A DNA stretch of 64,000 bases. It comes from an uncultured Gammaproteobacteria bacterium (GTDB lineage Bacteria; Patescibacteriota; Microgenomatia; Levybacterales; UBA12049). The translations under genes were made by a program, and so were the position numbers. The DNA lies in contig CAZDOJ010000001.1 in the NCBI GenBank assembly GCA_964507055.1, positions 13,210-77,209 on the forward strand. Reading direction: 5' to 3'. Below are positions 24,983-56,078 of this stretch, one piece after another. How positions within the stretch are numbered: position 1 is the first letter of the stretch; the number at the start of each line of letters is the position of its first letter. The notes beneath the pieces were generated by a model that did no database searches, was not told the origin of the DNA, and worked only from the letters and a program-made list of their open reading frames with translations.

Positions 24983-24991
24983 CGCAAGATT

Positions 24992-33346: not shown

Positions 33347-33679
33347 ATGGTTGAGTCAAGAAGAAGGAGTGAACCGCCTCAAAGAAGAGGTCCATGGCAA
33401 GAGCGTGCTGGCAATATATTGCGATCGGCACGAAATAAATTTTCTGGGGATGTTGGACGCCTAGAGCAGTGCCTCGTTCCTATAAATGATCCCATAACGC
33501 CTGAACCAAAGAATGTCTCCGGTCCAAGTGGATGTCTCATCGATAATTCAGGTAAAACTTCCGAAAGAACTCCACCTCCAGATCTGGGGATATCGATTTG
33601 GGAACAACCACTATCACAGGTTTTTAATATCTTTGATGGTAGCAATGATGGCCAGAGCGGTCCCAGAAGATCTTTATAA
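33347..33679 (+). CDS. Tag-bearing island protein 5 (a small 110-aa protein with a degenerate tag).
   Basis: It ends 'NIFDGSNDGQSGPRRSL' (Trp is missing). It starts 'MVES' from the conserved 'TATAAT-N7-ATGGTTGAG' arrangement. Confidence 0.5.
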   Translation: MVESRRRSEPPQRRGPWQERAGNILRSARNKFSGDVGRLEQCLVPINDPITPEPKNVSGPSGCLIDNSGKTSERTPPPDLGISIWEQPLSQVFNIFDGSNDGQSGPRRSL

Positions 33680-33754
33680 TAGGACATACAGTTTGGTATT
33701 TATAAGTATTTGAGGCAATAGCATATTTTATATTGACATGATATACTCCCAGCT

Positions 33755-35056: not shown

Positions 35057-35115
35057 CTTCTAAATATTTCTCCTCACCTTGAAGCTGCGTACGCATAGTG
35101 TTATACTTGTCGTTT

Positions 35116-36297: not shown

Positions 36298-36347
36298 ACT
36301 ATCCCGTAGTAGCCAATTGAATTCAGATTTGTTACAATACACCGATT

Positions 36348-37661: not shown

Positions 37662-37666
37662 TATAA

Positions 37667-38845: not shown

Positions 38846-38846
38846 T

Positions 38847-39899
38847 ATGGTAGAAGCATACAGAAATAATAAGGAGCGTAATAAAAAACCTTTCACTATG
38901 GTACTTCTTGATCACGGTGCTGCTCGTCCTTCCGAAATAGCAGTTTGGAAAAATCATATTGTGACCCTTCTCAATAGAGATCCTTCTCATCATGGGAAAA
39001 TAGTAGTCTTCACAGAAAATGCTGCCGGCACAATCAGCAACGCTAATCGTGTGCAAAATAAAATTCGTAACGGGAAACTACCTACAAAAGCTTCCATTGA
39101 AGCAGGCCTTGAAGAGATTGCCGCAGCTGGAAGAATATTAAATGTTCCTGAAGCAGAAGCACACGCTATCGCACAAGAGGGACTTGAAGAAGGATTTGAT
39201 GGTGCAATTTTTCCCATACTTGATGATCTTCACCGGGAGCATGGAGAAAGAGTCGTTTGGATAGATGAAGCACATCCTTTATCAACGCATGAGAAAGGTA
39301 TAGCCTTCTTGGATACTGGATTTTTTATAGATCCTCCTTACGGGACGACTTCTCAATCCGAAATTGCTGATTGGTATCGTGAGAATTTTCGAAAAAACTC
39401 AGAATTTGATAGAGAGCGAGAAAATAATATAAGCCAAGCTTTGGCTGAACAGCTCGATGATCCCAATATTATTGGTGGCGTCGGGGTGATGGGATATTTC
39501 CATACCCGCGTTGTTCATAATTTGGCACGAAATGGCTATGCGGCTCGCAATGTTTTTCCAGAAAGAGAAGGAAGAAACTTTCACTTTAGTCCTAATACCT
39601 ATCTGCATAGAATGATTCATTTCTTTCCAGATCGTCAAATTACCGATGCAGATGTCCAAGATGCTTTAAGTGTAGGTCAATATACTGGGACTTTACTAAG
39701 AAGTGAAGGACGTGATCCTGCGACATTGAGTATTCAAGAAAGAAACAAAGTAGGCAATGAAATTTTGCATATCAGAGGGAAAGCACGTCAACGAGAGCTT
39801 CAGATATTTGATTCATCAGAAGCACTTGGAGATCATAATGATGAAATTGATTGGGCTGGGAATGATGAGCCTGATGAGGGACCTAAAAGGTCTCTTTAA
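38847..39899 (+). CDS. Tag-bearing island protein 10 (family A, 'VVFTENA'/'GWVGAxHTG' family).
   Basis: It ends 'DEIDWAGNDEPDEGPKRSL'. The start was set at the 'ATGGTAGAA' (MVEA...) conserved among family starts, 1 nt after the upstream stop (TAAtATG). The family motifs 'KKPFTMVLLDHG', 'GKIVVFTENAAG' and 'GGVGVMGYFHTRVVHNLARNGY' are present. Confidence 0.6.
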   Translation: MVEAYRNNKERNKKPFTMVLLDHGAARPSEIAVWKNHIVTLLNRDPSHHGKIVVFTENAAGTISNANRVQNKIRNGKLPTKASIEAGLEEIAAAGRILNVPEAEAHAIAQEGLEEGFDGAIFPILDDLHREHGERVVWIDEAHPLSTHEKGIAFLDTGFFIDPPYGTTSQSEIADWYRENFRKNSEFDRERENNISQALAEQLDDPNIIGGVGVMGYFHTRVVHNLARNGYAARNVFPEREGRNFHFSPNTYLHRMIHFFPDRQITDADVQDALSVGQYTGTLLRSEGRDPATLSIQERNKVGNEILHIRGKARQRELQIFDSSEALGDHNDEIDWAGNDEPDEGPKRSL

Positions 39900-39960
39900 T
39901 GGCCTATAATAGTTTTATTTTTAATCATTTCATGGTATAATCCCAAAAGACAAGCCATCC

Positions 39961-41019
39961 TTGTCCCATTTTTTTATGAATAATATTGAAGGTGCTCCCA
40001 AGAAAAGAGTAGAACATCGTGAGGTGGATCCACGAAAAAAACCTATTGATCTTTTCTTTTTACCTCATCATGAGGATATGTATCACGTGCTTGATCCATG
40101 GGAAGAAAAAATACGTAATACACTCGCAGAAAAACCTACCGGCAAACTTGTTGTTTTTACAGAACTAGCAACTGGACGAAGAGATATGAGCGATCGTGTA
40201 CGTGGGCTTGTATCCAATGGTGTTTCTCCCAGTGACGCATATGCACAAGCAATAATATCACGGTTGCGTGAAGCTGGAGATGACGGTACAGATAGTGAAC
40301 TTGAAAATATTGCGTTACGAAGTCTCTCTGGATTTGTAGGAGAATCATCCATGAGACTTGACGGAATTGTCCGTGATTTTCCTGGAAGGATAGACTGGAT
40401 AATTGAAGGTCGTCGCGATGATCAAGAATTACCTGAAGATGACGAAGATGTAAAGGCTGCGTACACATTTCTGACGACAAGAGTTGATGGAGTTCCTAGT
40501 GACGACCATATTGATATTTATCGAGAATCACTTGCAACAATTTCCCATAGCGATCGTGTGCGGGATCGGTATATCGCGGAGCAAATTGCAGAGACACTTG
40601 AAAATCCTGATACTATTGGTGTTGCTGGGTGGGTGGGCACCAAACACACAGCAATCAGTCATAAATTAAAAGCAGACGGCTATACAATTAATCGAACATT
40701 TCCACAGTTAGAGGATGGAGTATTGGTATTTGCACCGATAACAACTCTTATACGAGAAGCCGAGTATCATCCAAGGAGAGAAATTCCCAAAGAAGATATT
40801 ATCGTGACAACCGCTCTTGCCAACCCAGTTTTTGATTTCGATCCGAATGCATCCGATCAGCAATTTTTTAAGAATGCACATACATGGATGACAGAGAAAA
40901 AAGCAGAACTCACGTTACAAGAAGAGCTTGGCAGTGATCAACCATTATCAGAAATTGATCCGTCCGTTAACTGGGATGGGACAGAGGATCCTGATTCCGG
41001 TCCACGTCAGAGCCTTTAA
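39961..41019 (+). CDS. Tag-bearing island protein 11 (family A).
   Basis: It ends 'PSVNWDGTEDPDSGPRQSL'. It has 'RKKPIDLFFLPHH', 'GKLVVFTELA' and 'GVAGWVGTKHTAISHKLKADGY'. Confidence 0.65.
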   Translation: MSHFFMNNIEGAPKKRVEHREVDPRKKPIDLFFLPHHEDMYHVLDPWEEKIRNTLAEKPTGKLVVFTELATGRRDMSDRVRGLVSNGVSPSDAYAQAIISRLREAGDDGTDSELENIALRSLSGFVGESSMRLDGIVRDFPGRIDWIIEGRRDDQELPEDDEDVKAAYTFLTTRVDGVPSDDHIDIYRESLATISHSDRVRDRYIAEQIAETLENPDTIGVAGWVGTKHTAISHKLKADGYTINRTFPQLEDGVLVFAPITTLIREAEYHPRREIPKEDIIVTTALANPVFDFDPNASDQQFFKNAHTWMTEKKAELTLQEELGSDQPLSEIDPSVNWDGTEDPDSGPRQSL

Positions 41020-41054
41020 TTGCTTTTTGTGCCCAATTTGTTACAATACCGCCT

Positions 41055-42089
41055 ATGTCACACTTTGAAAGAGAACCTATAAAAAGAACAGAACGACTTG
41101 ATCCAAGGCAGAAGCCGACGACACTTTTTTTTATCAACCATAATGAGGCTGATCATACGCCACTTGTACCTTGGAAAAATCACCTTGAAAACCGTTTGCA
41201 GGACTTACCGAAAGGGAAAAAGATTGCGGTATTCACTGAAAGTGTTATCACAAGTACTGAAGTCGCTCAAGCCACGCAGGAACGAGTTGCCGATGGTATG
41301 AGTCCAACTGAAGCATATGTACATTCTGTATATGATCAATTGCTTCCAGGTATGCCACGCACTGACAAAACTCTGGAGCTTGTACATGATCATGTCCGAG
41401 CTCAGAATTCTTTTATAGCAGCATCTCGGGATATACTTGATGAATTAGCCCAACGCTATCCCGGAATCCATTGGATTGAAGAATCACATGATGCAACAGA
41501 GCGTGACCGTATCGTAGAGAGTGCAAAAGATTTTTTTACCATGCTTGATGTTCGAACTGATCCTCAAAGCCAAACATTGGATGAAAAAAAAGAGGTGATA
41601 GAGAATTTTGGAGCAAGGCAGCAGATGCGTGATCAAAGCATTGCAGGACTTATTACTGGAGCACTTGAAGAAGATGATGTTGTAGAAAGTATTGGTTGGG
41701 TTGGAGCGGATCATACAGGTATTTCTCATGCTTTAGTGCGAGATGGATATACAGCAAATAGAGTCTTCCCACATAGGCAAGGAGGGACCTTCTATTTTGA
41801 ACCATTAACTACATTGTGGAAAACGGCAAACATTCGAGAACTTACCGATGAAGAAGTAGAAGTATCACTTCAAGCAGACCGAAACCTCGCAGTTCCATTG
41901 AGTGTTGGAAGACAAGCTGATATTCAAGCCGCACATCGGATGATTAAAGTAGCAACCCAGCTGAGACAGCGAAGTAATCAAAGGCAAGAACCACCATCAA
42001 TAGATTCAAGTGAAACTTCTTTGCCTCAAACTGCTATTGACTGGGCTAGTGAAGAAGAAGGTCCCACAGAACCACGAAGAACTTTATAG
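41055..42089 (+). CDS. Tag-bearing island protein 12 (family A).
   Basis: It ends 'TAIDWASEEEGPTEPRRTL'. It has 'RQKPTTLFFINHN', 'KKIAVFTESV' and 'SIGWVGADHTGISHALVRDGY'. A 'TGTTACAAT' box lies 7 nt before the ATG. Confidence 0.65.
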   Translation: MSHFEREPIKRTERLDPRQKPTTLFFINHNEADHTPLVPWKNHLENRLQDLPKGKKIAVFTESVITSTEVAQATQERVADGMSPTEAYVHSVYDQLLPGMPRTDKTLELVHDHVRAQNSFIAASRDILDELAQRYPGIHWIEESHDATERDRIVESAKDFFTMLDVRTDPQSQTLDEKKEVIENFGARQQMRDQSIAGLITGALEEDDVVESIGWVGADHTGISHALVRDGYTANRVFPHRQGGTFYFEPLTTLWKTANIRELTDEEVEVSLQADRNLAVPLSVGRQADIQAAHRMIKVATQLRQRSNQRQEPPSIDSSETSLPQTAIDWASEEEGPTEPRRTL

Positions 42090-42116
42090 TCAAAATGAAT
42101 TTGGTATAATCCCCAC

Positions 42117-43289
42117 ATGGTAGAACATGTTGATTCCTCTCGAACCGGAAAAAAACCACGCAAACCTTTTACACAATTTCTTGTCTCTCATAGTGACGAT
42201 AAACTTGATCAGCTCTCTGGATGGGCTAATGCACTTCAGCGATCGCTTGAAGAAAATCCAGATAAGAAAGTTGTAGTTTTTACAGAAAATGCTAAGGGAG
42301 TTAAAGCAGATTCAGAAAAACTAACAGAAAAGGTTCTGGAAGGTATGCTGCCATCTGATGCATATGCTGCTGTAGCAACAGAAAATATGAGTTCATACTT
42401 TGCAAAGAATAGTACTCGTGTAGGTGTTACAAGACAACGTCGGATTATTAAAAAAGAGGCAGAAAAAGCTAGAGATCAGATTGGAGGAGGATTTTTTGGT
42501 AGATCATTTCAACTTCTTGATGCTATTGCAGCTGAATATCCGGGCAGAATAGTATTCATAAGTGAATGGGAACCAGAGCTCGCAAATCAATTAGATACAC
42601 AACAGAAAACTCGAGAATTAGGTATCGGTTTTCGAAGAGAATTGGGATTGCAGACTCGGGCTGAAAAAGCTGCTTCTGCACGAGAGTTCTTTCTATTCCA
42701 GGCAGATAATGCAAATGCCAGAGAAGAGTCTGCTGCACAAGTTCTGACGGATGCCTTAGACCGCGATGACGTTGCTGCAGGAGTTGGCTGGATGGGAGCC
42801 GCACATACTGGACTTGTACATCGATTGCAGGCAAATCATGATGTACGCATGATTATGCCAGGAAAGGTTGGAAGAGATTTTGTATATACGCCTGAGAATG
42901 CACTTATTCGTGAACGACTATTTCATCCGGATCGTGATATTGATTTGGATGAAGCATACGAGGCTGTACAGATAGAAAGAAGAGTAAGAAGACAGTATCC
43001 AATTTTCCATTTGGGGATTGTTTTAGAAAGTAAATGGGGTATAAATCCATTTCATAATAAGCAGAGAAAAGCTGAAATTGATCAAGAAATTAGTAGAAGA
43101 GCTCAGGTTGAATTCCAAGCTTTTCGAGCAGGCCGAAATGAGTATGCCCAAGATCAAAACACAATAGTAGCTCTTCCCAATGCATCAGCGATTGTACAAG
43201 ACAATGAAGTGTCACTAAGAGATATGAACTCTGGTCTTGATTGGGATGGTTCAGACGGTCCAGATCAAGATTATCGAAAAACATTGTAA
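42117..43289 (+). CDS. Tag-bearing island protein 13 (family A).
   Basis: It ends 'SGLDWDGSDGPDQDYRKTL'. It has 'KKPRKPFTQFLVSHSD', 'KKVVVFTENA' and 'GVGWMGAAHTGLVHRLQANHD'. A 'TGGTATAAT' box lies 6 nt before 'ATGGTAGAA'. Confidence 0.65.
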   Translation: MVEHVDSSRTGKKPRKPFTQFLVSHSDDKLDQLSGWANALQRSLEENPDKKVVVFTENAKGVKADSEKLTEKVLEGMLPSDAYAAVATENMSSYFAKNSTRVGVTRQRRIIKKEAEKARDQIGGGFFGRSFQLLDAIAAEYPGRIVFISEWEPELANQLDTQQKTRELGIGFRRELGLQTRAEKAASAREFFLFQADNANAREESAAQVLTDALDRDDVAAGVGWMGAAHTGLVHRLQANHDVRMIMPGKVGRDFVYTPENALIRERLFHPDRDIDLDEAYEAVQIERRVRRQYPIFHLGIVLESKWGINPFHNKQRKAEIDQEISRRAQVEFQAFRAGRNEYAQDQNTIVALPNASAIVQDNEVSLRDMNSGLDWDGSDGPDQDYRKTL

Positions 43290-43319
43290 TTATTATTTAA
43301 AAAGAATATAATCCCGTCA

Positions 43320-44513
43320 ATGACTGAACGATCTGCAAAATCACCTGCTCAGGTGGAAGGGGCCGTGGCTCCAGATGGCAAGAAAAAACCTGTTTCCCTT
43401 TTCTTTGTTTCGCATCATCCTGCACAAGGATACCAGCTCGACGGATGGAGAAGAAAGATAGAAGATATCCTTGATTCTACTCCAAAAGGAAAAGTTGTAG
43501 TTTTTACAGAGAATGCTGGGCAAAGCCATAGGCATTCCAATCTTACTCGACAAAATGTTGCTAATGGTGATCTACCATCAGATGCCGTTGAAAAAAGTTT
43601 CCGAGAACTAAATGATCATTATCGAAGTCATGGGGTTGAATGGGCCTTGAGTGATGAGAGAGTAGCAGAACTTCTTGAGAAAGGAACAAAAACATTTACT
43701 GGCATATCGACAGCTATACTTGATGATATTGCTGCTCGTTATCCTGGAAGAATAGATCTCGTTGAGGAATGGGAAAGTCGCAAAGGACATCAACTTGAAC
43801 ATGATCTCTACAAAAAGGATACTCCTCAGCGAAATACAACCCTAAGTGCTGTTATGTCTTTATTTCCTCAAGGACGTAGAATTTTGGCTGCTGAGGGTCG
43901 AGAAAAATTGGCATCCGAAGCTGCAATATACCGTGAACGTGAGGAAACATCTGCACGAATTATTAGTGATGCATTAGAACAACCCGATACTATTGCGGCG
44001 GTTGGCTGGATGGGTGCAATACATACTGGACTGAGCCATGAGCTCACTCGAGAGGGTCATCCAGTAATGCGTGTATTTCCAGAGCGAGTAGATGGAGAGC
44101 CATATCTTTTTCCGCCAGGACATACGCTCCTTCGTGCCAAGCGTTTTGATCCGGATAAAGAATTAACTGATGATGAGATCGTAACGGCTGAGCAGGCTGA
44201 TCTGAAGGGAATGCATAAACAATTTGGTGATCCACGGATCAATCCAATTGGTTTTTTTATGCGGTATAAGTCTCAAAAAGAAGAAGTACGCTCAGGAAAA
44301 GCACAGGCTTCTATTCGATATGCTCAAGAATGGTATAGACGAAAAATGGGCAAACAGGCATCAAATGAAGAGCAAGTAAGTACAAATAGACAACTTCAAG
44401 AATCAGTTACGGTTGCCCCAGATATAGCAGAGCCCCCACTTGGCGATCTGAATTCCGATATAGATTGGGGAGAGTCTGGACCCGATGCAAATGGACCAAA
44501 ACGGTCACTCTAA
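43320..44513 (+). CDS. Tag-bearing island protein 14 (family A).
   Basis: It ends 'SDIDWGESGPDANGPKRSL'. It has 'KKKPVSLFFVSHH', 'GKVVVFTENA' and 'AVGWMGAIHTGLSHELTREGH'. Confidence 0.65.
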   Translation: MTERSAKSPAQVEGAVAPDGKKKPVSLFFVSHHPAQGYQLDGWRRKIEDILDSTPKGKVVVFTENAGQSHRHSNLTRQNVANGDLPSDAVEKSFRELNDHYRSHGVEWALSDERVAELLEKGTKTFTGISTAILDDIAARYPGRIDLVEEWESRKGHQLEHDLYKKDTPQRNTTLSAVMSLFPQGRRILAAEGREKLASEAAIYREREETSARIISDALEQPDTIAAVGWMGAIHTGLSHELTREGHPVMRVFPERVDGEPYLFPPGHTLLRAKRFDPDKELTDDEIVTAEQADLKGMHKQFGDPRINPIGFFMRYKSQKEEVRSGKAQASIRYAQEWYRRKMGKQASNEEQVSTNRQLQESVTVAPDIAEPPLGDLNSDIDWGESGPDANGPKRSL

Positions 44514-44556
44514 GCCTGTAATAGTTAAATAGTATATTTTTTGTTATAATCCTTCG

Positions 44557-46401
44557 ATGGTAGAACAATCAAGAAGAATTGCACCACAGGGAAGTCGTAC
44601 TTTTCGTGGTACAGATGTGTCCGCAATGCATGCAGAAATGCAAGGTATCCTTACGGCTTCGAGAGATAATGATCCGCATGCCTCCACAATAGACTCATAT
44701 AGAAAGATTGCTGATGCACTTCCTCTACGGGTTCCAGCTGCTACATACCAAGCCGTTAGTGAATCTATCAATAATCCTGATCCCGTGATTTCAAAAGCTG
44801 GGAAGGAAGTTTTTACTTGGCTAAATATAAAGACTGTAATTTCAGTTGCAGAAAGATATTCGGGAGAAGGTTTGGGAGATGTTGAAGATTTCGCTCAGGA
44901 AGGGGTTACTATCCTTTATGAAAATGTAGACACAATTCATCAGAGGGCAGATAGTTCTATGTATACTTATCGTTTGGCTGAAGAGGCTCTGACTAATAGT
45001 ATTGCTCGTGAGCATGGATTTAGTGTTACTATGAGCGAAAATAGAGTTGCATTACCTATTGGTCAGACCGTGACTGAATTATTTGATAATGCTCCCTTAG
45101 GGGTTGATGAAGTAGGGCTTGAAAGGCAAGCAGTAGTATTAGCACAGAAATTTGGAATTACTGAAGATGCTGCATTTAAATATCTCTCAAGGAGGAGTGC
45201 ATTGCAGCCAATTCACGAAAGTAAGATGCAGCCAGAACGTGAGGATACAGAGGTAATAGAAGATATTATGGTTTTAGATGAGCTTCTGAGGATGCTTCCT
45301 GAAAGGAATGAACAAATGCTGCGGATGAGATTTGGGAATGGTTTTACACTAGATGAAATTGCCCAACGCTACAACCTGGTTCCTGAACGTGCTCGTCAAA
45401 TAATTGCTAAAACAATTAAATCATTACAGCATGAGCAAGTTATCGATTTTGTTACAGGGGGAGTTAAACCCGCATCTCGAAGTCAGCGAATAATGACATC
45501 AGATGGAGAAGAGGGGCAGGATATTGAAGATGTCATCCGCGAAAAGCGTTTGGCTGGATATGGTGAATCTGGATCAGGTTCGTGGGCTGAATCTAGAAAG
45601 GAATTGGCTAATATTGCACATGCATTCTTAGCTGAGCCGCAAATTGGGTATCCGGAAATTGCAAATAGGCTTGGAATTACAGTAGATAAAGTAATTTATA
45701 GTGTACAAACTCTTCGTTCAAAATATTTGTTACCAGATGCTAATGCAGGTAAGCATGCAAAAATAACTCCCGATGATGGCAACAGAACATTGCAGGAAAG
45801 ACTACATTCACGATATGAAAGACAAGAATCCGAGATTGTAGTTCCGCCAATTCAGGGGGAAAGAGAAACAAGTACTATCCCAGCAATTGAGGACACTTCT
45901 TCTAAATCGAAACCACCATCAGAAAGAACACTTCGTGCTTTAATTTTGCAAAAACAAGCGTGGAAGTTACAGCAAGAAGACGGAAAAACGTACGATGAGA
46001 TTTCTGAAATACTCAATGTTAGTCTAGGATCCATACGAAGATATCTTCAAAACGAACGGCGAGACCTTGGTCTTGCAAATCAGACGAATGTCGGACGTCC
46101 TAAAGATCCTGAGGTGCAAGCTAGAAGAGCCGTTTTGGCTGAGAGAATTAAAGCTGGTGAGCCTCTTAGAGTTCATGGATTTGCTAAAGAGTTTGGTACT
46201 ACTGTAGGTACTATAAATTTTGATATACGTGAAATTTTGAGTGGATATCATACTTCTTCATCAGAGACAACAATATTTTCTCAAGAAGAACATGCTTCGC
46301 AACAGCCTAAACTTGAGGAGCCAGAGGTTACGATCGCTGATGTAGCTGTCGATTGGGATGGTACCGATGATCCTGAAGCAGGTCCTCAACGAACTTTATA
46401 A
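44557..46401 (+). CDS. Tag-bearing island protein 15. It is a sigma-70-family-like protein (regions 2 and 4) with a roughly 330-aa C-terminal extension that contains an extra HTH.
   Basis: The region-2-like segment is 'ISVAERYSGEGLGDVEDFAQEGVTILYENVDTIH...SMYTYRLAEEALTNSIAR'. The region-4-like segment is 'LDELLRMLPERNEQMLRMRFGNGFTLDEIAQRYNLVPERARQIIAKTIKSL'. The extra HTH is 'KTYDEISEILNVSLGSIRRYL'. It ends 'VAVDWDGTDDPEAGPQRTL'. A 'TGTTATAAT' box lies 6 nt before 'ATGGTAGAA'. Confidence 0.65.
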   Translation: MVEQSRRIAPQGSRTFRGTDVSAMHAEMQGILTASRDNDPHASTIDSYRKIADALPLRVPAATYQAVSESINNPDPVISKAGKEVFTWLNIKTVISVAERYSGEGLGDVEDFAQEGVTILYENVDTIHQRADSSMYTYRLAEEALTNSIAREHGFSVTMSENRVALPIGQTVTELFDNAPLGVDEVGLERQAVVLAQKFGITEDAAFKYLSRRSALQPIHESKMQPEREDTEVIEDIMVLDELLRMLPERNEQMLRMRFGNGFTLDEIAQRYNLVPERARQIIAKTIKSLQHEQVIDFVTGGVKPASRSQRIMTSDGEEGQDIEDVIREKRLAGYGESGSGSWAESRKELANIAHAFLAEPQIGYPEIANRLGITVDKVIYSVQTLRSKYLLPDANAGKHAKITPDDGNRTLQERLHSRYERQESEIVVPPIQGERETSTIPAIEDTSSKSKPPSERTLRALILQKQAWKLQQEDGKTYDEISEILNVSLGSIRRYLQNERRDLGLANQTNVGRPKDPEVQARRAVLAERIKAGEPLRVHGFAKEFGTTVGTINFDIREILSGYHTSSSETTIFSQEEHASQQPKLEEPEVTIADVAVDWDGTDDPEAGPQRTL

Positions 46402-46442
46402 TTTATCTTTCCGCCTCATCCTATGGTATAATCTTGCCCAAT

Positions 46443-48695
46443 ATGATTGAACGGAGACCTCAAATGAAATCGGCAGTCTTTACCGGAGATGTTGATGGCA
46501 TTGATCCTTATGGTACATTGGCAGAATATGTAAAAGTTATTGATACTGTGGCTGCGATTCGCACTCCAGAAGATCGTATTCAGGCAAGACATGTATTACG
46601 TCGGATGATTATTGGATTTCCTCCTCACATTTCTCCCGCAGCTTTCATTAAAAATGAACATGCAGAGCTTGCTCTTACAGATGAAGAGCGAAGGATACAA
46701 GAACAAGATACAATTGATAGAAAAGCCAAACAAGAAGCAATTGATGCAGATATTGCTTCAGGTACATATCCTTGGCAAGCACATGCACGGCATAATGAAG
46801 AAAGCAGAGTCAATACACATCTCATTGGGTTTTACGGAGATGAAGCTTTACAACCACTCTATGGACCTCCTTATTTTGAATCAACTCACGGACAAAAAGA
46901 AGTCCATTTAATACATTTGGATATCAAGCCAGTTGAGGGAGAAGTGCGAAAGAGTGCACATTGGGATGCGTTACCAGAAGATCTTCGAGAACAGTTTGAG
47001 GGAGGATCAATCCCAATCACCGGAACGACTGACCTTTATGCATTAACAGATGAGGAATTAGACAACCTTGCAGTGTCCGAAGATCCATTCAAAATGCAAA
47101 AGCATATAAAAAAGAAACTTGCTCAAGCGGATGATGGATATTATGTTTTGTATTATAGTGATTTCCGCAATCCAGGAGGGAGAACTGGTGTCCTCATGCA
47201 ATCAAGGGATGGAGATATGCAACCTGTGACCACGAAAATTGGTGATGATGAATTTCTCATTGAAGCCAAATCGATAGGGACAAAATATGGTGGATTTGGA
47301 GGAAAGCATCGTCGTCAAAGTGGAAATGATGTCATTACGGGTGGGGGGACTGCTAGAGAATCCGTACGTGAAATTGAGCGCTTGGAAGAGACTGAATTTC
47401 ATGATGGTCCTCAACCAGTTGGTGCTATAACATTTCGCAACGAGGAAGGTGAAGATCAAGGTGTACTGCTTCGACTTACACCGTCAACTGTTCGTGCTGC
47501 TTTTACTATGCCAGATGCATATCCGAAAATTGATTCCCCTGATATTGCAAAGCGGGTTTTCGATATGTATACACAATTATTGGCTGATCAAACGCTTGGA
47601 GAAAATCCTTATATTATAGGTGCTCAATCTTCACATACGGAAAATATCCTCATTTGGAAAGATACGTATGGCTATACAGACTCAGCAGATAAAGCAGCTT
47701 TTCATGATGGTTCAGTGGTGAGTTATGAGAAGGACTTCAAGTTGCGTACGCCTAAAGAGTTTCTCATAGAATACATTGGGCTCGTAGGATATATTCCTGG
47801 AAGGAGCAAGGTAGAAAAACAATACTTTATTGATGGGCTTACTCGAGCTTTTGCCTCTCATGGCAAAAATATTGACCTCCATCCTGAAGATTATGATTTT
47901 GAGATTGCCGAAAAGCTTTGGGCAGAAGGGGGAATTGCATATTCTGTATTTAAGGCTAGAAGAGAACGAGGATTTGTGGCAGATGGAGTACTTAAAGATT
48001 TTACTGATTATGCTGCAAAGGTGAGAGATATATTTGGCGAAAAAGCAATGGGTTCTGAAGAATCATTTAAGCAGAGGATGGAAGATATGGTTGCAACTGT
48101 GAAGAAACAGCTTCTTGAGAAAAGAAATAAAACCAGTGACATTGACGCCCAAAGAGAAATCAATAGTATATTAGCAGAACTCGGAGGAAATAATTTTTTG
48201 AATGGAAGTAATGGATATGATCTCATTTCGAATACGTTTTCACAAAATCATGGAGAAACACAGGAAGATAATGAGCTTATTCAAAACGCTGAAGATATTA
48301 AGACGATACAACAGCTATTTTTCATACATGAATTATATTTCGATCATGAAAGTGATGTAGTATCTGGTGCGTTGAAAAGTTGCCCTGAAGAAGAACGTGA
48401 AAATGTTGAAGATGCAAAAGCGGAGGTTGGTCGAAAACTAGATGAAGCATTTATACTTCGCACGCCAGAAGGACTTTATCGAGCTCTAACAGATGCGGAA
48501 TATGTGCGAGAGTTGATAACAATGGAGGTATATTCACAAGGCTCAGAATTATCTACAGATATTGAAGCTCATCCCGAACAAGTGATCTTCGATCCACGAC
48601 AATATGGATCATCGACTGAGTTTTTTTTAGCTGATGCCCAGATAGACTGGGCTGGAATAGAAGATCCTGATCCTGGATCACAACGAACGCTTTAG
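46443..48695 (+). CDS. Tag-bearing island protein 16 (753-aa hypothetical).
   Basis: It ends 'AQIDWAGIEDPDPGSQRTL'. The ORF track starts at an upstream TTG, so the ATG at 46443 was chosen, 10 nt after 'TGGTATAAT'. Confidence 0.6.
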   Translation: MIERRPQMKSAVFTGDVDGIDPYGTLAEYVKVIDTVAAIRTPEDRIQARHVLRRMIIGFPPHISPAAFIKNEHAELALTDEERRIQEQDTIDRKAKQEAIDADIASGTYPWQAHARHNEESRVNTHLIGFYGDEALQPLYGPPYFESTHGQKEVHLIHLDIKPVEGEVRKSAHWDALPEDLREQFEGGSIPITGTTDLYALTDEELDNLAVSEDPFKMQKHIKKKLAQADDGYYVLYYSDFRNPGGRTGVLMQSRDGDMQPVTTKIGDDEFLIEAKSIGTKYGGFGGKHRRQSGNDVITGGGTARESVREIERLEETEFHDGPQPVGAITFRNEEGEDQGVLLRLTPSTVRAAFTMPDAYPKIDSPDIAKRVFDMYTQLLADQTLGENPYIIGAQSSHTENILIWKDTYGYTDSADKAAFHDGSVVSYEKDFKLRTPKEFLIEYIGLVGYIPGRSKVEKQYFIDGLTRAFASHGKNIDLHPEDYDFEIAEKLWAEGGIAYSVFKARRERGFVADGVLKDFTDYAAKVRDIFGEKAMGSEESFKQRMEDMVATVKKQLLEKRNKTSDIDAQREINSILAELGGNNFLNGSNGYDLISNTFSQNHGETQEDNELIQNAEDIKTIQQLFFIHELYFDHESDVVSGALKSCPEEERENVEDAKAEVGRKLDEAFILRTPEGLYRALTDAEYVRELITMEVYSQGSELSTDIEAHPEQVIFDPRQYGSSTEFFLADAQIDWAGIEDPDPGSQRTL

Positions 48696-48707
48696 AAATG
48701 TCAGGTT
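48691..48707 (+). repeat. Conserved intergenic element 'TTTAGAAATGTCAGGTT' that overlaps the stop codon.
   Basis: It recurs nearly identically at 50764-50780, and a related 'CTAGAATGTCAGGTAG' lies at about 28974-28989. It always sits directly after a tag-encoding 3' end and about 30 nt before the next -10 box. Confidence 0.5.
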
Positions 48708-48722
48708 TGTTGAGCTAAATTT

Positions 48723-48731
48723 TGCTATAAT
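48723..48731 (+). promoter_or_regulatory. Extended -10 'TGCTATAAT', 6 nt upstream of the ATG at 48738 (leaderless arrangement).
   Basis: It is representative of the island's promoters. The same arrangement occurs at 42102-42110, 44542-44550, 50796-50804 and 53562-53570 (TGnTATAAT-N6-ATG). Coordinates are approximate to +/-1 nt. Confidence 0.5.
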
Positions 48732-48737
48732 CCCCGA

Positions 48738-50768
48738 ATGAAAGAACTACTCAGAGCGAGAAAATCATTTTTGAGAGGAGAACCCCTCCGTCATAATCCT
48801 GGTGATGATGATCGGACCCAGGATAAATTTGCTAACGTACCACATGGTGGTCCCCAAAAAGAAGGAAGATTACCAGGAGAAAGAATTAGTGATCAACAGC
48901 GTGATGAGGTGCTATCCGGAGTTCTCAATAGTGAAGTAAAGATGCTCGTTTTGGCGGGAATGGTTCTGGACCCTGAAGTATACACTGCTGGAGATCTCGA
49001 TAGTATGATACGGGATATGCAACGTGGACAAAAAGGTTGGAATTTAAGTAGCAACATAGCATTCGGGTACTGTCTCAATTCTTTCGATGGGATTGGACTA
49101 GTCGCAAAAAGTGAACCTGTAAACGATCGGACGACCTTGGGATTTAAAGCAACACAAAGAGGCAAAGACACGTTACCAGTTATTGGACATCTCTTGGATT
49201 TCTCACTGAAACATCCAGATATAGCTTTGCGGCGTGTCTTTTCAACAACTGCTTCTCCTTCAAAGGCCACGGCTGAAGGCGAACAAGCTGGAGACTATAA
49301 AGTCCGTGCTCCCAAAAGACGATTTCGTATTCTTAAAGCACTCGTCGAGAACGAGGGGCCACTACGTGAGTCAGATATGCGAAAGCTTGTAAATAATTCA
49401 TCTGTTGAGTTGCATCTGGAAAGCCTTCATAACATTGGGCTTATAACTTATGAGAACACAAGAGTTGGTGCAGATCATATCACCTATACAGTTATTCCAG
49501 ATGCTATCTCTGATGTTCATGCTCTGCCTTCTATTCCAACGTCAACCGATAACCAGCTGCAATTACGTGCAGCATATATTACCTCAAAACTTTCGGGTGA
49601 AATTTCTCCAAAAGATGTATATGAACGATTAGTCGCTTTATTCCCACAATATAAAGAACGGGATCCTCGTGGTACAGAAAAGGTAATAAATAGAAAGCTC
49701 CATCACATGTCAATGCATGGATTTATAGAAAAAGGGAAACGCACAATAGACCGAAAAACAGATATCTCAGTAACTGAAGAACAGCGAGAAACTATAGCTG
49801 AGATCGTGGGAATTATTGATGCATTTCAGGCAGGAGATCCGACATTCTTAGCAGAAGGAGAACAGAAAGCTCGACGAATTATCCAAAATCCTGAGGCAGC
49901 AGCTACTCTTATGCGTAAGGCTCAGGAAAGTTCGCATACAGCTCTTGCTCTTGGTCAAGCAGAATTGAAGAGAAGATTAGTGACTTTTGCTGAACAAAGC
50001 GAAGGTCCGATAACAAGTGTGCTTGCTGCTGAATATCTGGAGCATCGTGTGGGTAAAAGTTATGCTGGTGCGATATTACGAGAACTTGCAAGAGAAGGAA
50101 AGATACAGGTTGAATCACGGGGTCAAGTTATAAGATATGGTCCTGTCGCTCCGCAGGAACAAGAGATCCCTTTGCCTGAAGATAAGCGAGGTTTAGAACA
50201 AGTTGCAGTTACGGTAAATGCGGAGATTAAGCCATTTGCTGATGGTATCAAGTTGCTTCTTGCTGCATATGCTTCACATACCGATCCTCAGTCAGAATCA
50301 GCTCTTGAAGTAATGGATCAAATTCGTTCTGTACGAGCACTGCCTGAATATGCACATCTCATTTCGAAACGTGATCAGATAGAACAACGGCTTGCTGTTA
50401 TTGCATCAGAAGAGGCTGGTATCGAGTTAGCGAATGAAGAACCCGTTGTAGAAACAGAAGTTGAGATGCAAGAAAATACGGAGGTTGTTCTGAAACCCCA
50501 AAATAGTCCAAAATCGAAGACAGTTGAGCTTCGTGAGCGAATTCAAGCCTTTAAGGATTTAGGAGTATCTGATTCTAGCGAAATTGCACAATGGATGGGT
50601 GTAAGTAGATCTACCATCACAAGACATATTCGGCAGATGCAAGCACAAGAAACACAAGAAGAACCCATACTTCCTGCAGTTGAAGATCAGCCATTAAGTG
50701 CATTAGATGCTGGGATTGATTGGAGTGGAGATGATGATCCTGATCCCGGTTTACAAAGAACACTTTAG
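48738..50768 (+). CDS. Tag-bearing island protein 17 (family C). It is a DNA-binding-like protein with a winged-helix-like segment and a C-terminal HTH.
   Basis: It ends 'AGIDWSGDDDPDPGLQRTL'. The N-terminal roughly 130 aa are paralogous to protein 18 ('...VLNSEVKMLVLAGMVLDPEVYTAGDL...GYCLNSFDGIGLVAKSE'). It has 'RRFRILKALVENEGPLRESDMRKLV' and the HTH 'SEIAQWMGVSRSTITRHIRQM'. Confidence 0.65.
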   Translation: MKELLRARKSFLRGEPLRHNPGDDDRTQDKFANVPHGGPQKEGRLPGERISDQQRDEVLSGVLNSEVKMLVLAGMVLDPEVYTAGDLDSMIRDMQRGQKGWNLSSNIAFGYCLNSFDGIGLVAKSEPVNDRTTLGFKATQRGKDTLPVIGHLLDFSLKHPDIALRRVFSTTASPSKATAEGEQAGDYKVRAPKRRFRILKALVENEGPLRESDMRKLVNNSSVELHLESLHNIGLITYENTRVGADHITYTVIPDAISDVHALPSIPTSTDNQLQLRAAYITSKLSGEISPKDVYERLVALFPQYKERDPRGTEKVINRKLHHMSMHGFIEKGKRTIDRKTDISVTEEQRETIAEIVGIIDAFQAGDPTFLAEGEQKARRIIQNPEAAATLMRKAQESSHTALALGQAELKRRLVTFAEQSEGPITSVLAAEYLEHRVGKSYAGAILRELAREGKIQVESRGQVIRYGPVAPQEQEIPLPEDKRGLEQVAVTVNAEIKPFADGIKLLLAAYASHTDPQSESALEVMDQIRSVRALPEYAHLISKRDQIEQRLAVIASEEAGIELANEEPVVETEVEMQENTEVVLKPQNSPKSKTVELRERIQAFKDLGVSDSSEIAQWMGVSRSTITRHIRQMQAQETQEEPILPAVEDQPLSALDAGIDWSGDDDPDPGLQRTL

Positions 50769-50810
50769 AAATGTCAGGTTCACTACAATGAAGTTTGTTA
50801 TAATCCCCAA

Positions 50811-53528
50811 ATGAAAGAACGATTTCGAGAAAGACGTATACAAAGGGAGGTTTTACGACATCATCCTGATCCGGGCGAACAGGATAAATTTTCGCAAGGT
50901 GGAGCACATCCTGAAGTTCCTGGTGAACGGAGAGAAAGAGTATCGACACAGAAGATTGATGAACTCCTGGCAGGAGTGTTTAATAATGAATCCAAGATGA
51001 TTGTCCTTGGTGGGATGATCCTCAATCCTCACTGGTATTCAGATCAGCAGCTTCATGATATGACAATGCGGATGCAACGAGGAGAGCGAGGATGGGGCAT
51101 TGGAAATCACATTCCCTTTGGTTACTGTCAGGATTCTTTTGATGATATCGGACTTGTTGCAAAAAATGAAATCGATGGGGCTCGCGATAGTTTAAAATAT
51201 CATGTGACCCAAGATGGTATTAGTGCACTTCCTGCTATTGGTCATCTACTTTCGTTTGTTGAAGAATCAGGCATCTCTTTGCATAGAACTTTCTCAACAA
51301 CGAGTACTCCTTCTTCAGCAGCGAGTATTGATTCTGAGGAAGAACATAATGATGATCGTGACATACGAAAACGTGCACCAAAGACAAGGTATAGAATTTT
51401 TAAACAATTACTTGCTCATGAAGGACCAATACAAAAAGTTGATTTACAAGAAAATCTCAACGTGAATGGGAGTTCTCTCGGGCACCATTTAAGAAACCTC
51501 AGTATTGAAGGTATGCTTGACTATCAAAGCTATTATGATGGTGAACCACTCGCTGTTACATATCGCATCAATGCAGATGCTTTTCAAAAGATAAACTATG
51601 ATGATCTTCCACGAGATGCAAGATCAACGATTACAACGATTACGAGACGAGTTGCTTTTATTGCTGCTCATATGGAAGGGACTGTTACTCCTGCTAAAGT
51701 GCATGAAAAATTGCTTGCTCTGTATCCTCAATATGCAGAGAGAACTGAGGGTCATGTTCGAAGCAGCGTGAATCGTGCCTTAACGCATCTTGCAAAACAT
51801 GAGTATCTACAGCGAGGAGAGATCTCTGCAGATCGTCCTTCATTAATCTCTTTAACTGATGAGCAGCGAGAAAGAATGCAACAACTTGTAACGATCATCG
51901 ATACATTCCAATCAGGTGATCCCGAATTCTTAGCACAAGGTGAGCAAAAAGCCCGCGAAATTTTAAATGATCCTCAAAGAGTAGCACGATTAATGAGACA
52001 CGCACAAGAAAATTCTAGAATAGCATTAGCTTTGGGGCCTGCGGAGTTAAAACAGATGATCATCGAAATCATTAAAGATAGTGACACACCATTATCCGGA
52101 GCGAGAATTGTGCCGTTGATGGACCATCGGATTGGACAGCCGTATGCAACAGCTTTATTAAAGCAATTATATGATGGTGGTGAAATAGCCTTGGTAAGTG
52201 AAGGAAGATCAAAATGGTATGGAAAACTTCAAGAAACAGGAGGTGTTGACGCATTACCCGAAGATAGAGATGGGTTAAGATCATCACTGCAACAAGTTAC
52301 TGCTGAATTTCAGCCATACGAAAATGGCCTGGGGCTTTTATTTGCTGCTTTAGACACGCATGATCCAGCGTCAGCAGATGCCCGAGAGGTTTTAAATCAG
52401 ATTGAATATGTCCGCATGGATCCTGAATATCGAAGACTTAAAGGTAGAATCGACACTATACAAGATAGGCTGGAGAGTTTCGCTGATGAAATTGAAGATG
52501 AAGCAGTTGCGGACGAAACTCAGGTTAGAAAAAGAACACCACGCCAAAGTTCGGTCGTCATTCGCCAACGGATAGATGCTTTTAGGGATTTAGGGATTAC
52601 CAATCAAAGCGAAATTGCACGTTGGATGGGCTTCTCTCCTGATAGTTTGAAATATCATTTCCAGTCGATGGACGATACGCTTAATAGAGCAATATCTCCT
52701 GAGCGAATGGCAAAAATTGATATATCCAGAGCATTGCGTGATCAGGATCAATTAACTCCCGCACAAATTGCAGAACGGATGGGTACCACTGAGAGTACAG
52801 CTCGTGCATATCTCGAACTTGCAGATGATGCTGAAAGGCTTGCAAATCAACGCGAAGTAACTTCTCCTTATCAAGATCGCCTTGTTAGAGTCCGCGAAAT
52901 GGAAGAAGAGTGGGGTGACATGATGCAAGTTACACCGATGGTTCATCAAATGGCTGCGGAGTTAGGCCTATCTGTTGCATCGATCCATAATTATCGAAGA
53001 GAACTTTTTGCGACACGTGCTCGAGCAGCAAGAGTACGGGAAGGCCAAATAGAACAGGTCCGAGCGATGACTGAAGAGTTACAGCAGCTTCCTAACCAAG
53101 AACGTGTATTAGTGATTGCTGAAAGACTAGGATTAAATCGATCAACTGTATATCGCTTTCAAGATAAAGCATTTGGAGTTGCAGAGCAAAGAAAAGTAGG
53201 AATTGCTGAGCGACGTGCACGGGTTGCCCAGCGTTCAGAAGAGCTTCGTGCAATGGGAATCCCTATAAAAGAAGCTGCAAAAGTTATTGCTGAAGAAGAA
53301 GGTGTCTCTCCTGGGACGATAATGTTGGACAGAAGAGCTTTATTACAATCACAGCGAGAAGCCACACAAGCAGAAAATCTATCATCTTCTGTAGAAGAAA
53401 CCATTGTTTATGAGGCAGATCATAGCTTGCCTGATCTTTCGTCAGAGCAATCATTAAATACCTTCAATGAAACAATTGACTGGTCTGGTGAAGATGATCC
53501 GGATATTGGACAACACAGGACACTTTAG
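50811..53528 (+). CDS. Tag-bearing island protein 18 (family C). It is a 905-aa protein with five tandem HTH-like repeats.
   Basis: It ends 'ETIDWSGEDDPDIGQHRTL'. The repeated HTHs are 'SEIARWMGFSPDSLKYHFQSM', 'QIAERMGTTESTARAYLELA', 'QMAAELGLSVASIHNYRREL', 'VIAERLGLNRSTVYRFQDKA' and 'KVIAEEEGVSPGTIMLDRRAL'. Confidence 0.65.
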   Translation: MKERFRERRIQREVLRHHPDPGEQDKFSQGGAHPEVPGERRERVSTQKIDELLAGVFNNESKMIVLGGMILNPHWYSDQQLHDMTMRMQRGERGWGIGNHIPFGYCQDSFDDIGLVAKNEIDGARDSLKYHVTQDGISALPAIGHLLSFVEESGISLHRTFSTTSTPSSAASIDSEEEHNDDRDIRKRAPKTRYRIFKQLLAHEGPIQKVDLQENLNVNGSSLGHHLRNLSIEGMLDYQSYYDGEPLAVTYRINADAFQKINYDDLPRDARSTITTITRRVAFIAAHMEGTVTPAKVHEKLLALYPQYAERTEGHVRSSVNRALTHLAKHEYLQRGEISADRPSLISLTDEQRERMQQLVTIIDTFQSGDPEFLAQGEQKAREILNDPQRVARLMRHAQENSRIALALGPAELKQMIIEIIKDSDTPLSGARIVPLMDHRIGQPYATALLKQLYDGGEIALVSEGRSKWYGKLQETGGVDALPEDRDGLRSSLQQVTAEFQPYENGLGLLFAALDTHDPASADAREVLNQIEYVRMDPEYRRLKGRIDTIQDRLESFADEIEDEAVADETQVRKRTPRQSSVVIRQRIDAFRDLGITNQSEIARWMGFSPDSLKYHFQSMDDTLNRAISPERMAKIDISRALRDQDQLTPAQIAERMGTTESTARAYLELADDAERLANQREVTSPYQDRLVRVREMEEEWGDMMQVTPMVHQMAAELGLSVASIHNYRRELFATRARAARVREGQIEQVRAMTEELQQLPNQERVLVIAERLGLNRSTVYRFQDKAFGVAEQRKVGIAERRARVAQRSEELRAMGIPIKEAAKVIAEEEGVSPGTIMLDRRALLQSQREATQAENLSSSVEETIVYEADHSLPDLSSEQSLNTFNETIDWSGEDDPDIGQHRTL

Positions 53529-53576
53529 TAGCAGCCTGTAGTAGAATTTTGAGCCTAAATTTGGTATAATCCGCAA

Positions 53577-56027: not shown

Positions 56028-56078
56028 CTTGAATATAAGGCTAAATTCAACTATAATACCCCGATACATTAGATAACT

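Follow-up and report, generated by a model that had tools for sequence, protein, structure and literature searches.

A divergent sigma-70-like protein in an array of C-terminally tagged proteins: a candidate for export from a Patescibacterium

Introduction

What would a sigma factor be doing in the midst of an array of proteins that are otherwise unrelated and end in the same short peptide? The question is raised by open reading frame (ORF) P0001, which lies in a 64,000-nt stretch of DNA (the window, to which all coordinates refer unless they are prefixed C1, for contig numbering) and encodes a protein of 614 amino acids (aa). The window belongs to a metagenome-assembled genome of 1.56 Mb in 7 contigs (38% GC, 97% complete), the producer of which is treated here as a Saccharibacterium (order Saccharimonadales, Patescibacteria or Candidate Phyla Radiation, CPR). 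Those Saccharibacteria that have been brought into culture live obligately as epibionts on Actinobacteria; their type IV secretion system (T4SS) is essential, with substrates that are unknown (PMC12857230; 10.1101/2025.01.22.634366). Since the producer's group lives as epibionts of other bacteria, a sigma factor that left the cell would have a target.

A first-pass annotation of the sequence had offered three readings of P0001: a transcription-reprogramming factor delivered to another cell, a sigma factor regulated through its tag, or a sigma-derived fold co-opted for another role. The evidence set out below suggests, with about an even chance of being right, that an ATPase encoded within the same island recognises the tag as a modular export signal, and that P0001 would be delivered through the T4SS onto the RNA polymerase or the DNA of a host bacterium.

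The C-terminal tag and the island that carries it

The conserved peptide noticed at the C-terminus of P0001 on first reading is genuine: it matches, with an E-value of 2.7e-11, a hidden Markov model (HMM) of 28 columns that was built from 20 tails, and it belongs to a family with the terminal consensus [IV]DW.G.DDPD.GP.[RK][ST]L. In this genome the tag HMM recovers 36 tails and a regular expression 41 ORFs. The HMM was also run on 72 related genomes, 12 of them congeners and 60 from other genera of the family, and matched nothing there. The tagged ORFs, at least 41 in number, encode soluble and otherwise unrelated proteins and amount to 63.8 kb, or 4.1% of the genome; a terminal motif shared in this way with other proteins is what would be expected of a T4SS substrate. 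The tryptophan of the tag stands 13-15 aa from the C-terminus in 28 of the 41, and the tails are acidic, the last 25 aa having a mean net charge of -4.7, as against +0.7 in other ORFs. In P0001 the tail from aa 565 to 614 carries a net charge of -10, is disordered in the structural model and matches no Pfam family at E-values up to 1. A survey of the tagged proteins for signal peptides found none and brought up a single borderline hydrophobic window.

Synonymous codons at the tag vary freely, with six in use for the terminal leucine and four each for glycine and proline, a pattern that points to conservation of the peptide rather than of the DNA. A DNA-level junction repeat, that is a recombination or processing site, was considered and rejected because the conserved residues use all synonymous codons. 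We infer that the tag is a modular targeting signal and that its reader is the island's own ATPase.

About 33 of the tagged ORFs form one block of 55 kb (C1:38147-93043), and scattered tagged copies are found at C1:115979, 204898, 210053-213410, 294821 (1875 aa), 780460-784551 and 945412. The effector-like array that had been suspected around P0001 is borne out, and it surrounds P0025, a VirD4-type ATPase and the only untagged gene within the block. P0025 matches the Pfam families T4SS-DNA_transf (5.4e-29), TraG-D_C and TrwB_AAD_bind, and its best NCBIfam model is the VirD4-like CD1115 family (71.9 bits, below the cut-off). The ATPase domain is preceded by an N-terminal extension of 640 aa, partly of low complexity, and a search with this domain for related loci in genome contigs found nothing. 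The C-terminus of P0025, ..DDGPPKLGK, is itself faintly tag-like.

A T4SS substrate requires a coupling protein and a channel, and both are encoded in the genome. The channel locus (C1:1156649-1170401) adjoins dnaN/dnaA, which matches a published observation on the location of T4SS loci in the CPR, and it contains three VirB2-like pilins, a VirB4-like ATPase, a 921-aa protein, four VirB8-like single-pass proteins and VirB6/8-like genes. A second type IV coupling protein (T4CP), which is membrane-anchored, is encoded 40 kb from the channel locus.

P0001 as a divergent sigma-70 module

The reading frame of P0001 is uninterrupted, with zero internal stops, and all four strings quoted from it in the first-pass annotation are in the translation. 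The same protein, without a single difference, recurs on 8 contigs, which come from several runs of a single bioreactor study; four DNA runs of that study contain the gene and may be where it originates. The sigma-70 family model TIGR02937 of NCBIfam scores 85.5 bits over aa 92-292, which correspond to regions 2 to 4, against a cut-off of 42.9. Among the Pfam models Sigma70_r4 is clear (2.7e-16, 59.2 bits against a gathering threshold, GA, of 24.1, aa 244-292), as is Sigma70_r4_2 (5e-16), which matches a second stretch at aa 467-503. Sigma70_r2 is marginal, with 21.2 bits by hmmscan and 24.9 bits, over the cut-off, in the genome scan (GA 24). The recognition of regions 2 and 4 in the N-terminal part is upheld, and a significant HMM match was found where its lack would have spoken against a sigma factor, with region 2 marginal when taken alone. 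Outside the profile collections, phmmer aligns aa 37-293 of P0001 with residues 370-640 of an RpoD structure in the PDB (7ye1_F, 1.3e-13), and the protein matches phrog_351, 'RNA polymerase sigma factor' (1.5e-14). P0001 is a sigma-70 family member at the superfamily level.

An AlphaFold2 (AF2) model built from 43 relatives has a predicted local distance difference test score (pLDDT) above 90 over aa 20-300. When the model was compared with the PDB by Foldseek, sigma factors took all of the top 50 places (lowest E 6.9e-6, 270-340 aligned columns), with TM-scores that are low because the domain arrangement differs. The Pfam profile of region 3 stays below threshold (16.9 bits against a GA of 25.3), yet a region 3 is present in the alignment with RpoD, in the AF2 model and in the Foldseek matches. 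The model places the helices of aa 165-216 between sigma2 and sigma4, and then a short region 3.2 linker (aa 217-225) of low confidence. Ahead of region 2.1, aa 20-89 align to the segment of RpoD that precedes the same region. Taken together, alignments and model indicate that aa ~20-300 of P0001 make up a complete but divergent sigma-70-family module composed of sigma2, sigma3 and sigma4.

Against the genome's own RpoD, P0001 is collinear across regions 2.1, 2.2, 3.0/3.1, the acidic 3.2 tip (ED..IED), 4.1 and 4.2. The motifs of region 2.1 (NIKTVISVAERY) and region 2.2 (DFAQEG) are retained, as is the recognition-helix motif ER.RQI of region 4.2. The differences are concentrated elsewhere: in the same alignment TY--RLAEE stands in region 2.3/2.4 where group 1 has YATWWIRQ, the 2.4/3.0 junction has lost its family motif, the 3.2/4.1 segment is ~17 aa shorter and region 1.1 is absent. 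In characterised sigma factors regions 2.1 and 2.2 bind core RNA polymerase, and residues of 2.3 and 2.4 melt and read the -10 element. That P0001 might bind core RNA polymerase and direct promoter-specific initiation is suggested, indirectly, by a single feature, the retained DxxQEG motif of region 2.2.

Beyond the module, the first-pass annotation had described a further ~330 aa with another helix-turn-helix (HTH). The HTH is there, and it is one of three small HTH-type domains, which are followed by a disordered tail (Table 1). A search of the protein atlas with aa 300-614 yielded nothing usable.

The start of the gene deserves a comment. A -10 element as close to the ATG as that of P0001 (Table 1) is an arrangement typical of leaderless transcripts, and 51% of the tagged ORFs have the sequence TGnTATAAT 4-9 nt upstream of the ATG; the figure is 25% for the remaining ORFs and 2.8% for random positions. 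A scan for -35/-10 consensus sequences did not flag the promoter of P0001, because it is an extended -10 element without a good -35. Motifs resembling Shine-Dalgarno sequences were seen upstream of only ~11% of the ORFs in the genome, in which leaderless expression looks common. An N-terminal start of the form M-x(0-3)-E-[RQK] (MTER, MVEQ, MKER and the like) is enriched among the tagged proteins, with 19 of 41 as against 29 of 747 others (Fisher p ~2e-14), for example in the ORFs at 44557, 43320, 50811 and 53577. The same start is found in ORFs of L034/L035, a related island described below, and in the VirD4-like ATPases of both islands; it may represent a further signal or reflect a constraint imposed by leaderless translation.

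Table 1. Features of the P0001 gene and of the part of the island that lies in the window
Feature	Coordinates	Strand	Basis or remark
Extended -10 promoter-like element TGTTATAAT	44542..44550	+	Read from sequence; ends 6 nt upstream of ATG
ORF P0001	44557..46401	+	614 aa: sigma-like module, three HTH domains and tagged disordered tail
N-terminal helical extension, aa 20-89	44614..44823	+	pLDDT >90; precedes region 2.1; conserved in CPR sigma-like clade
Sigma2 domain (regions 2.1-2.4), aa 91-153	44827..45015	+	Profile searches, alignments
Sigma3-like helical domain, aa 165-216	45049..45204	+	Collinear RpoD alignment, AF2 model, Foldseek
Sigma4 domain (regions 4.1 and 4.2), aa 226-299	45232..45453	+	Pfam Sigma70_r4 59.2 bits, alignments
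First extra HTH-type three-helix domain, aa 343-390	45583..45726	+	pLDDT 85-90; weak Pfam HTH match at 360-390
Second extra HTH, sigma4_2-like, aa 456-503	45922..46065	+	Sigma70_r4_2 at 467-503; HTH_24 7.8e-7; model
Third extra HTH-type domain, aa 518-563	46108..46245	+	pLDDT 93-96; aligns with counterpart in P0056
Disordered acidic linker, aa 565-597	46249..46347	+	pLDDT <50
C-terminal tag VDWDGTDDPEAGPQRTL, aa 598-614	46348..46398	+	Tag HMM E 2.7e-11
21 consecutive ORFs, all ending in the tag or a variant	24938..57275	+	In-window part of island
Tagged 505-aa ORF, tail VDFAGEDEPDQDLPKTL	57280..58797	-	Directly downstream of ATPase gene
P0025, 1250-aa VirD4/TraG-type coupling-protein-like ATPase	58799..62551	-	Pfam, NCBIfam, hydropathy
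Further tagged ORF, 527 aa	62698..63999	+	Runs off window; island extends to C1:93043

Place among the sigma factors

The genome is not short of sigma factors. It encodes its own RpoD (369 aa, C1:1195154-1196263), which scores 380 bits with the RpoD_Cterm model against a cut-off of 354, a 177-aa protein of the extracytoplasmic function (ECF) type on the same contig as the window, and a second tagged sigma-like ORF of 933 aa (C1:781750-784551). P0001, which could have been taken for the housekeeping factor if it were the genome's only sigma-70, scores 47.3 bits with RpoD_Cterm and does not reach the cut-off of any RpoD, SigB/F/G, RpoH or ECF subfamily model, with scores far too low for SigBFG and RpoH. 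It differs from group 1 in the RpoD profile score, in region 2.3/2.4 and in not being the primary sigma factor. With groups 1-3 as a whole (RpoD/SigA, RpoS, RpoH) it shares the domain order, the fold and the 2.1/2.2 and 4.2 motifs, and unlike them it adds a 315-aa extension with three HTH domains and the tag, and is encoded by an accessory, species-specific gene. For group 3 in particular (sigma2, sigma3 and sigma4, as in SigB/F/G, FliA and RpoH) the indications diverge: the alignment and the model give P0001 a sigma3 domain, and the Pfam region 3 profile and the SigBFG and RpoH models stay below their cut-offs. The ECF factors of group 4 consist of sigma2 and sigma4 only, measure ~170-250 aa and usually have a cognate anti-sigma factor encoded adjacent to them. 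In P0001 a sigma3-like domain sits between sigma2 and sigma4. The genes around P0001 encode further tagged proteins, in which neither an anti-sigma domain nor a transmembrane segment is predicted, and the search for a cognate anti-sigma factor that had been proposed at first reading produced no candidate near P0001.

When P0001 was sought in the congeners, the search returned their RpoD (~28% identity) and one fusion of a helicase with a sigma-like module, in genome G002. An exhaustive phmmer search of 1.84 billion representatives gave 33 matches below 1e-10 (E 1e-25 to 1e-10), all confined to aa ~15-295 of P0001 and beginning at aa ~15-20. Many of them are fusions of a superfamily 2 (SF2) helicase with a sigma-like module, those with a named source are all from the CPR, and none of the 33 carries the tag. 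In a quick maximum-likelihood tree P0001 pairs with P0056, a metagenomic protein discussed below (SH-aLRT 98), within a CPR helicase-sigma clade (97) that is apart from RpoD (99). The phylogeny suggested in the first-pass annotation thereby sets P0001 apart from the genome's RpoD and likewise from its ECF sigma; the remaining tagged sigma-like proteins sit on long branches in other parts of the tree. By its position in the tree the sigma module of P0001 derives from the CPR helicase-sigma clade.

The members of this clade are annotated 'sigma-70 family RNA polymerase sigma factor', and their family is unnamed. They are the nearest sequence relatives of P0001, with the extension ahead of region 2 included, and they differ from it in being encoded by ordinary chromosomal genes, without a terminal tag of any kind and without the extension of HTH repeats. 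A protein family in which an SF2 helicase (ResIII/DEAD and Helicase_C) is fused to a C-terminal sigma-like module is widespread in the CPR, in ordinary chromosomal contexts, with examples in L013:64-2499 (G002), L037:10001-12472, P0058 and P0062. The tail of P0094 (..LDW..DDYDPDSG..) and the RYGEY-type tails of P0071, P0091 and P0096 were examined as possible tags and rejected, these being ordinary chromosomal helicase-sigma genes.

It would still be conceivable that P0001 is a housekeeping or standard alternative sigma factor that bears its C-terminal likeness by chance, given that it passes the sigma-70 superfamily model. This identity was rejected, and we give it next to no credence: a bona fide RpoD and an ECF sigma are encoded elsewhere in the genome, P0001 fails the NCBIfam cut-offs of the RpoD, SigB/F/G, RpoH and ECF models, branches apart in the tree and is absent from the congeners, and the tag is statistically unambiguous.

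Related islands with other tags

The closest relative of P0001 is P0056 (670 aa), with which it is collinear over aa 20-557 (29-576 in P0056; E 1e-28) and which has the same architecture of sigma module and HTH domains. P0056 is encoded in an island (L034/L035) on a 44.5-kb metagenomic contig (Logan SRR30654424_1210551), where the ORFs, 15 or more, all end in a different shared tail, [VI][FY].[RK]YG[IVL]...E[IV][DE]E. The ATPase of this island is a VirD4-like protein of 1879 aa with 23% identity to P0025 in the first part of the NTPase domain (E 5e-7); it ends in a tag-like sequence, ..EKYD...TIDE. With the tails removed, several cargo families are common to the two islands, and at least four sigma-like ORFs besides P0056 are encoded in the second (region 2 at 26-32 bits, region 4 at 22-32 bits). 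A phmmer search with the C-terminal half of P0001 found no relative either in its own genome or in the P0056 island.

A further island occupies the same chromosomal site in a sister species, G012, whose prolyl-tRNA synthetase (ProRS) is 94% identical. The site is flanked by ProRS and membrane-protein genes on one side and by a 302-aa gene and HIT on the other, and in G012 it holds 28.6 kb (G012:C1:39809-68439, L045-L047). About 17 ORFs of this island have in common an N-terminal motif of ~45 aa, ..RE.F.G...RSF...PP..RR[IV]VSP, and no common C-terminal motif was found among them. The ATPase is a 1290-aa protein of the HerA/DUF87 type without detectable similarity to P0025 or to the L035 ATPase, so that the three island ATPases appear to be linked at clan level only. 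One cargo body is common to the sister islands: a 997-aa protein in the window (29136-32129), with the C-terminal tag, has an orthologue of 988 aa in G012 (34% identity, E 9e-141), and the latter is ~50 aa longer at the N-terminus, the site of its own tag. The sigma-like cargo of G012 comprises a 285-aa protein (region 2 at 3e-13, and region 4) and a 462-aa protein with region 3, region 4 and an HTH. The site is empty in the congeners G010, G005, G009 and G003 and holds two unrelated genes in G007, which makes five of the seven genus genomes examined, the window's own among them, that have no such island at the site.

As far as sequence comparison goes, each of the three islands has a tag of its own and, to go with it, a large P-loop ATPase of its own, and sigma-like cargo from several sigma lineages recurs in all three. 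These patterns invite a broader proposal, which we consider possible but doubtful: that sigma mimics, independently recruited from at least three lineages, and multi-HTH proteins are injected through the T4SS into the bacterial host of the epibiont, that their island-specific tags are decoded by a cognate soluble ATPase of the VirD4 or HerA type, and that ATPase and tags are swapped as a cassette.

Other cargo of the island

The largest paralogue family of the island has at least 10 members of 350-400 aa (38784-44513, 53577-56027, from 62698 onwards, and C1:84731-87046). Its structural model shows a confident fold (predicted TM-score 0.73), and alignment with VIA-align gives ChaN (Z 9.5), EreC (9.0), two EreA-like proteins (8.6 and 8.3), HopBA1 (8.2) and the RRSP domain of MARTX (7.0). 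The Z values are moderate and the top matches coherent. EreC is an erythromycin esterase and HopBA1 a type III effector. With invariant H, E, E, R, G and H positions, the family may be a hydrolase of the TIKI/EreA superfamily. The only cargo protein with a clear enzyme family is encoded at 27053-28978, a tagged FAD/NAD(P)-dependent pyridine-nucleotide-disulphide oxidoreductase with the variant tail VSWD...PPKKTL.

Another tagged family, with multiple winged HTH (wHTH) domains, has members of 676, 905 and 562 aa (48738-53528 and C1:91355-93043). Untagged homologues of 435-470 aa (for example L043:10001-11410) occur in other CPR chromosomes in a conserved neighbourhood of phosphoribosyl pyrophosphate (PRPP) synthetase, YbaB, DnaX, YbeY, RecR, cysteinyl-tRNA synthetase (CysRS) and ProRS, which corresponds to the flanks of the present island.

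Neither WXG100 or LXG proteins nor membrane components of type VII secretion showed up in the scans of the island ORFs, and PADLOC and PHROGs returned generic sigma4 or sigma-factor matches only (the sigma4 region of MzaA, phrog_351), with no defence-system or phage structural genes. Two adjacent tagged ORFs, 37667-38845 and 38784-39899, overlap by 62 nt with their longest starts, and the second probably begins, in fact, at a later start codon. Contigs C5-C7 of the assembly are 3-7 kb long, have 55-63% GC against 38% elsewhere and are probably bin contamination.

Where would the tagged proteins act?

If the tag is an export signal, P0025 would recognise it at the C-terminus of the cargo and pass the cargo to the T4SS channel encoded beside dnaA, and P0001 would be exported into the bacterium on which the epibiont lives. 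There the sigma module might engage the core RNA polymerase of the host, while sigma4 and the HTH domains would bind DNA. The outcome would be either a redirected host transcription or a host sigma factor blocked by a competitor that is unable to melt promoters. The delivered transcription-reprogramming factor of the first-pass annotation is favoured, though unproven, on the strength of the array, the T4SS locus, the tag swap and the recurrent sigma-like cargo.

Several observations weigh against this sequence of events. The link between P0025 and the distant channel locus is assumed, hydropathy predicts no transmembrane helix in P0025, and searches for the protein brought up no match, whether at E<=1e-10 among 300 genomes of the class or in a word-indexed database of 5.8 billion proteins. 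T4SS signals are usually C-terminal, and the G012 island pairs an N-terminal tag with a HerA/DUF87-type ATPase that is dissimilar to P0025. Some cargo families, the multi-wHTH and the helicase-sigma proteins, have untagged chromosomal homologues, and the tagged copies could be native regulators. With region 2.3/2.4 divergent and the 3.2 linker shortened, as the alignments show, the module may or may not act as a sigma factor. In a published transposon-sequencing experiment on Southlakia the T4CP homologue was non-essential, whereas other T4SS genes were essential. A complex prediction for P0025 (290-1250) with an alignment of 36-aa tails scored 0.03, run without controls, and weighs neither way on binding.

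One alternative keeps the tagged proteins inside their producer, with the tag as an intracellular handle, be it a degron, a scaffold docking peptide or a chaperone or unfoldase site; the cargo might then, for example, be alternative sigma factors and regulators whose level or location is controlled through the island ATPase. The derivation of cargo from native CPR families with untagged chromosomal homologues would fit such a role, as would the soluble nature of P0025 and the housekeeping-type TATAAT promoter that each gene has of its own, and export is itself deduced from sequence. Set against this, the VirD4/TraG family of ATPases is known for the coupling of T4SS substrates; known degrons are less elaborate than a motif of 17-20 aa in which a tryptophan is invariant, a GP pair recurs and the C-terminal residue is fixed; the carriers are at least 41 unrelated proteins that occupy 4% of a reduced genome; and the largest paralogue family resembles secreted effectors. 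Moreover, the island is replaced in full from one sister species to the other, and other congeners lack it, a pattern that fits interaction loci better than core regulation. We regard the intracellular handle as unlikely, if far from negligible. Its narrower form, the sigma factor regulated through its tag as an anti-sigma or degron handle that had been entertained at first reading, is disfavoured: the tag is found on at least 41 unrelated soluble proteins, the FAD oxidoreductase and the hydrolase-like family among them, and is therefore not sigma-specific. A role as a general degron or assembly handle is possible.

P0001 may also be exported with its sigma fold turned to another use, as a DNA-binding protein or a decoy for RNA polymerase without promoter-specific initiation, a case that overlaps with delivery onto the host transcription machinery and that, taken separately, seems to us no more probable than the intracellular handle. 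The co-opted fold suggested in the first-pass annotation finds support in the replacement of the W-dyad and of the -10-reading residues in region 2.3/2.4, in the loss of the 2.4/3.0 junction motif and in a 3.2/4.1 segment that is ~17 aa shorter; the Pfam profiles of regions 2 and 3 are at or below threshold, and the four HTH-type units (sigma4 and three more) suggest DNA binding as the main activity. The retention of regions 2.1/2.2, of the acidic 3.2 tip and of the 4.2 motif speaks for the other side, as does the confident modelling of the whole module as sigma2-sigma3-sigma4, and to our knowledge alternative sigma factors generally lack the W-dyad of group 1. A far less probable reading makes the island a mobile or conjugative element, the tagged proteins of which are transferred together with its DNA (a 'conjutome') and establish the element in recipients, instead of serving as effectors against the host of the epibiont. 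P0025 does belong to the family of conjugative coupling proteins, with the CD1115 conjugal family as its best NCBIfam match, and the island is accessory, sits at an insertion hot spot and has a GC content of 40.7% against 38% for the genome; F-type systems are reported to translocate many plasmid-encoded proteins (PMC11288057). But a Pfam scan of 40 island ORFs turned up no relaxase, no integrase or recombinase and no replication gene, the window contains no tRNA, flanking or otherwise, and no Rfam family, and a published survey found that the T4SS of the CPR are without key conjugation components. Of the relaxase, the integrase or recombinase and the attachment site that characterise an integrative conjugative element, none came to light in these scans, and such a reading is weakened because a relaxase and an integrase were not found.

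Parallels with known systems

The proposed export of P0001 has partial counterparts among characterised systems. The X-Tfe effectors of the bacteria-killing T4SS of Xanthomonas and Stenotrophomonas share a folded C-terminal VirD4-interacting domain of ~120 aa, the XVIPCD, and operate from diderm cells. Here, too, many unrelated proteins end in one common C-terminal module, and recognition by a VirD4-type ATPase may be supposed. Unlike the XVIPCD, however, the module is a peptide of 17-20 aa in a disordered tail, its bearer a monoderm member of the CPR, and its cargo made up of regulators and sigma-like proteins rather than cell-wall toxins; no conserved C-terminal domain of ~120 aa is present in P0001. 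The Dot/Icm system of Legionella, a type IVB system with eukaryotic targets, relies on loose, acidic (E-block) C-terminal signals, for which the DotL coupling complex is the reader. Points of likeness are the putative signal itself, which is disordered, acidic and C-terminal, the size of the repertoire and a coupling ATPase as the putative receptor, whereas the motif described here is near-invariant. P0001 shares no sequence with XVIPCD or Dot/Icm effectors.

Phages provide the precedent for the cargo. Phage sigma factors and appropriators such as T4 gp55, AsiA/MotA and SPO1 gp28 take over the host transcription machinery, phage sigmas being expressed from injected DNA. P0001 would resemble them as a foreign sigma-family protein that seizes a bacterial core RNA polymerase, with the difference that the protein itself would be delivered. 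The co-variation of an ATPase with an adjacent array recalls the EssC variants of type VIIb secretion, where a large P-loop ATPase co-varies with a strain-specific set of substrates bearing a terminal signal, although P0025 is of the VirD4 and not of the FtsK/EssC type.

Implications

The T4SS is widespread in Patescibacteria and essential for epibiotic growth in the one genetically tractable species, and no T4SS substrates or signals are described for this group in the literature searched. The present locus is a concrete candidate for a substrate set, with at least 41 proteins, one peptide address, a coupling-type ATPase and two natural tag swaps. Sigma-factor-like cargo makes mechanistic sense only with another bacterium as the recipient, and delivered sigma mimics addressed by swappable tags are a plausible account of the three islands. 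If the tag should prove to be an intracellular handle, it would still represent an unusual proteome-wide addressing system in a genome of 1.5 Mb. If export is confirmed, the locus would supply the first substrate set and signal code for the T4SS of Patescibacteria and give CPR genetics a secretion tag that is portable. An ultra-small epibiont would then be seen to reprogram its host through a takeover of transcription at the protein level, comparable to that by phage sigma factors, and the 'delivered sigma factor' would join the ways in which one bacterium controls another.

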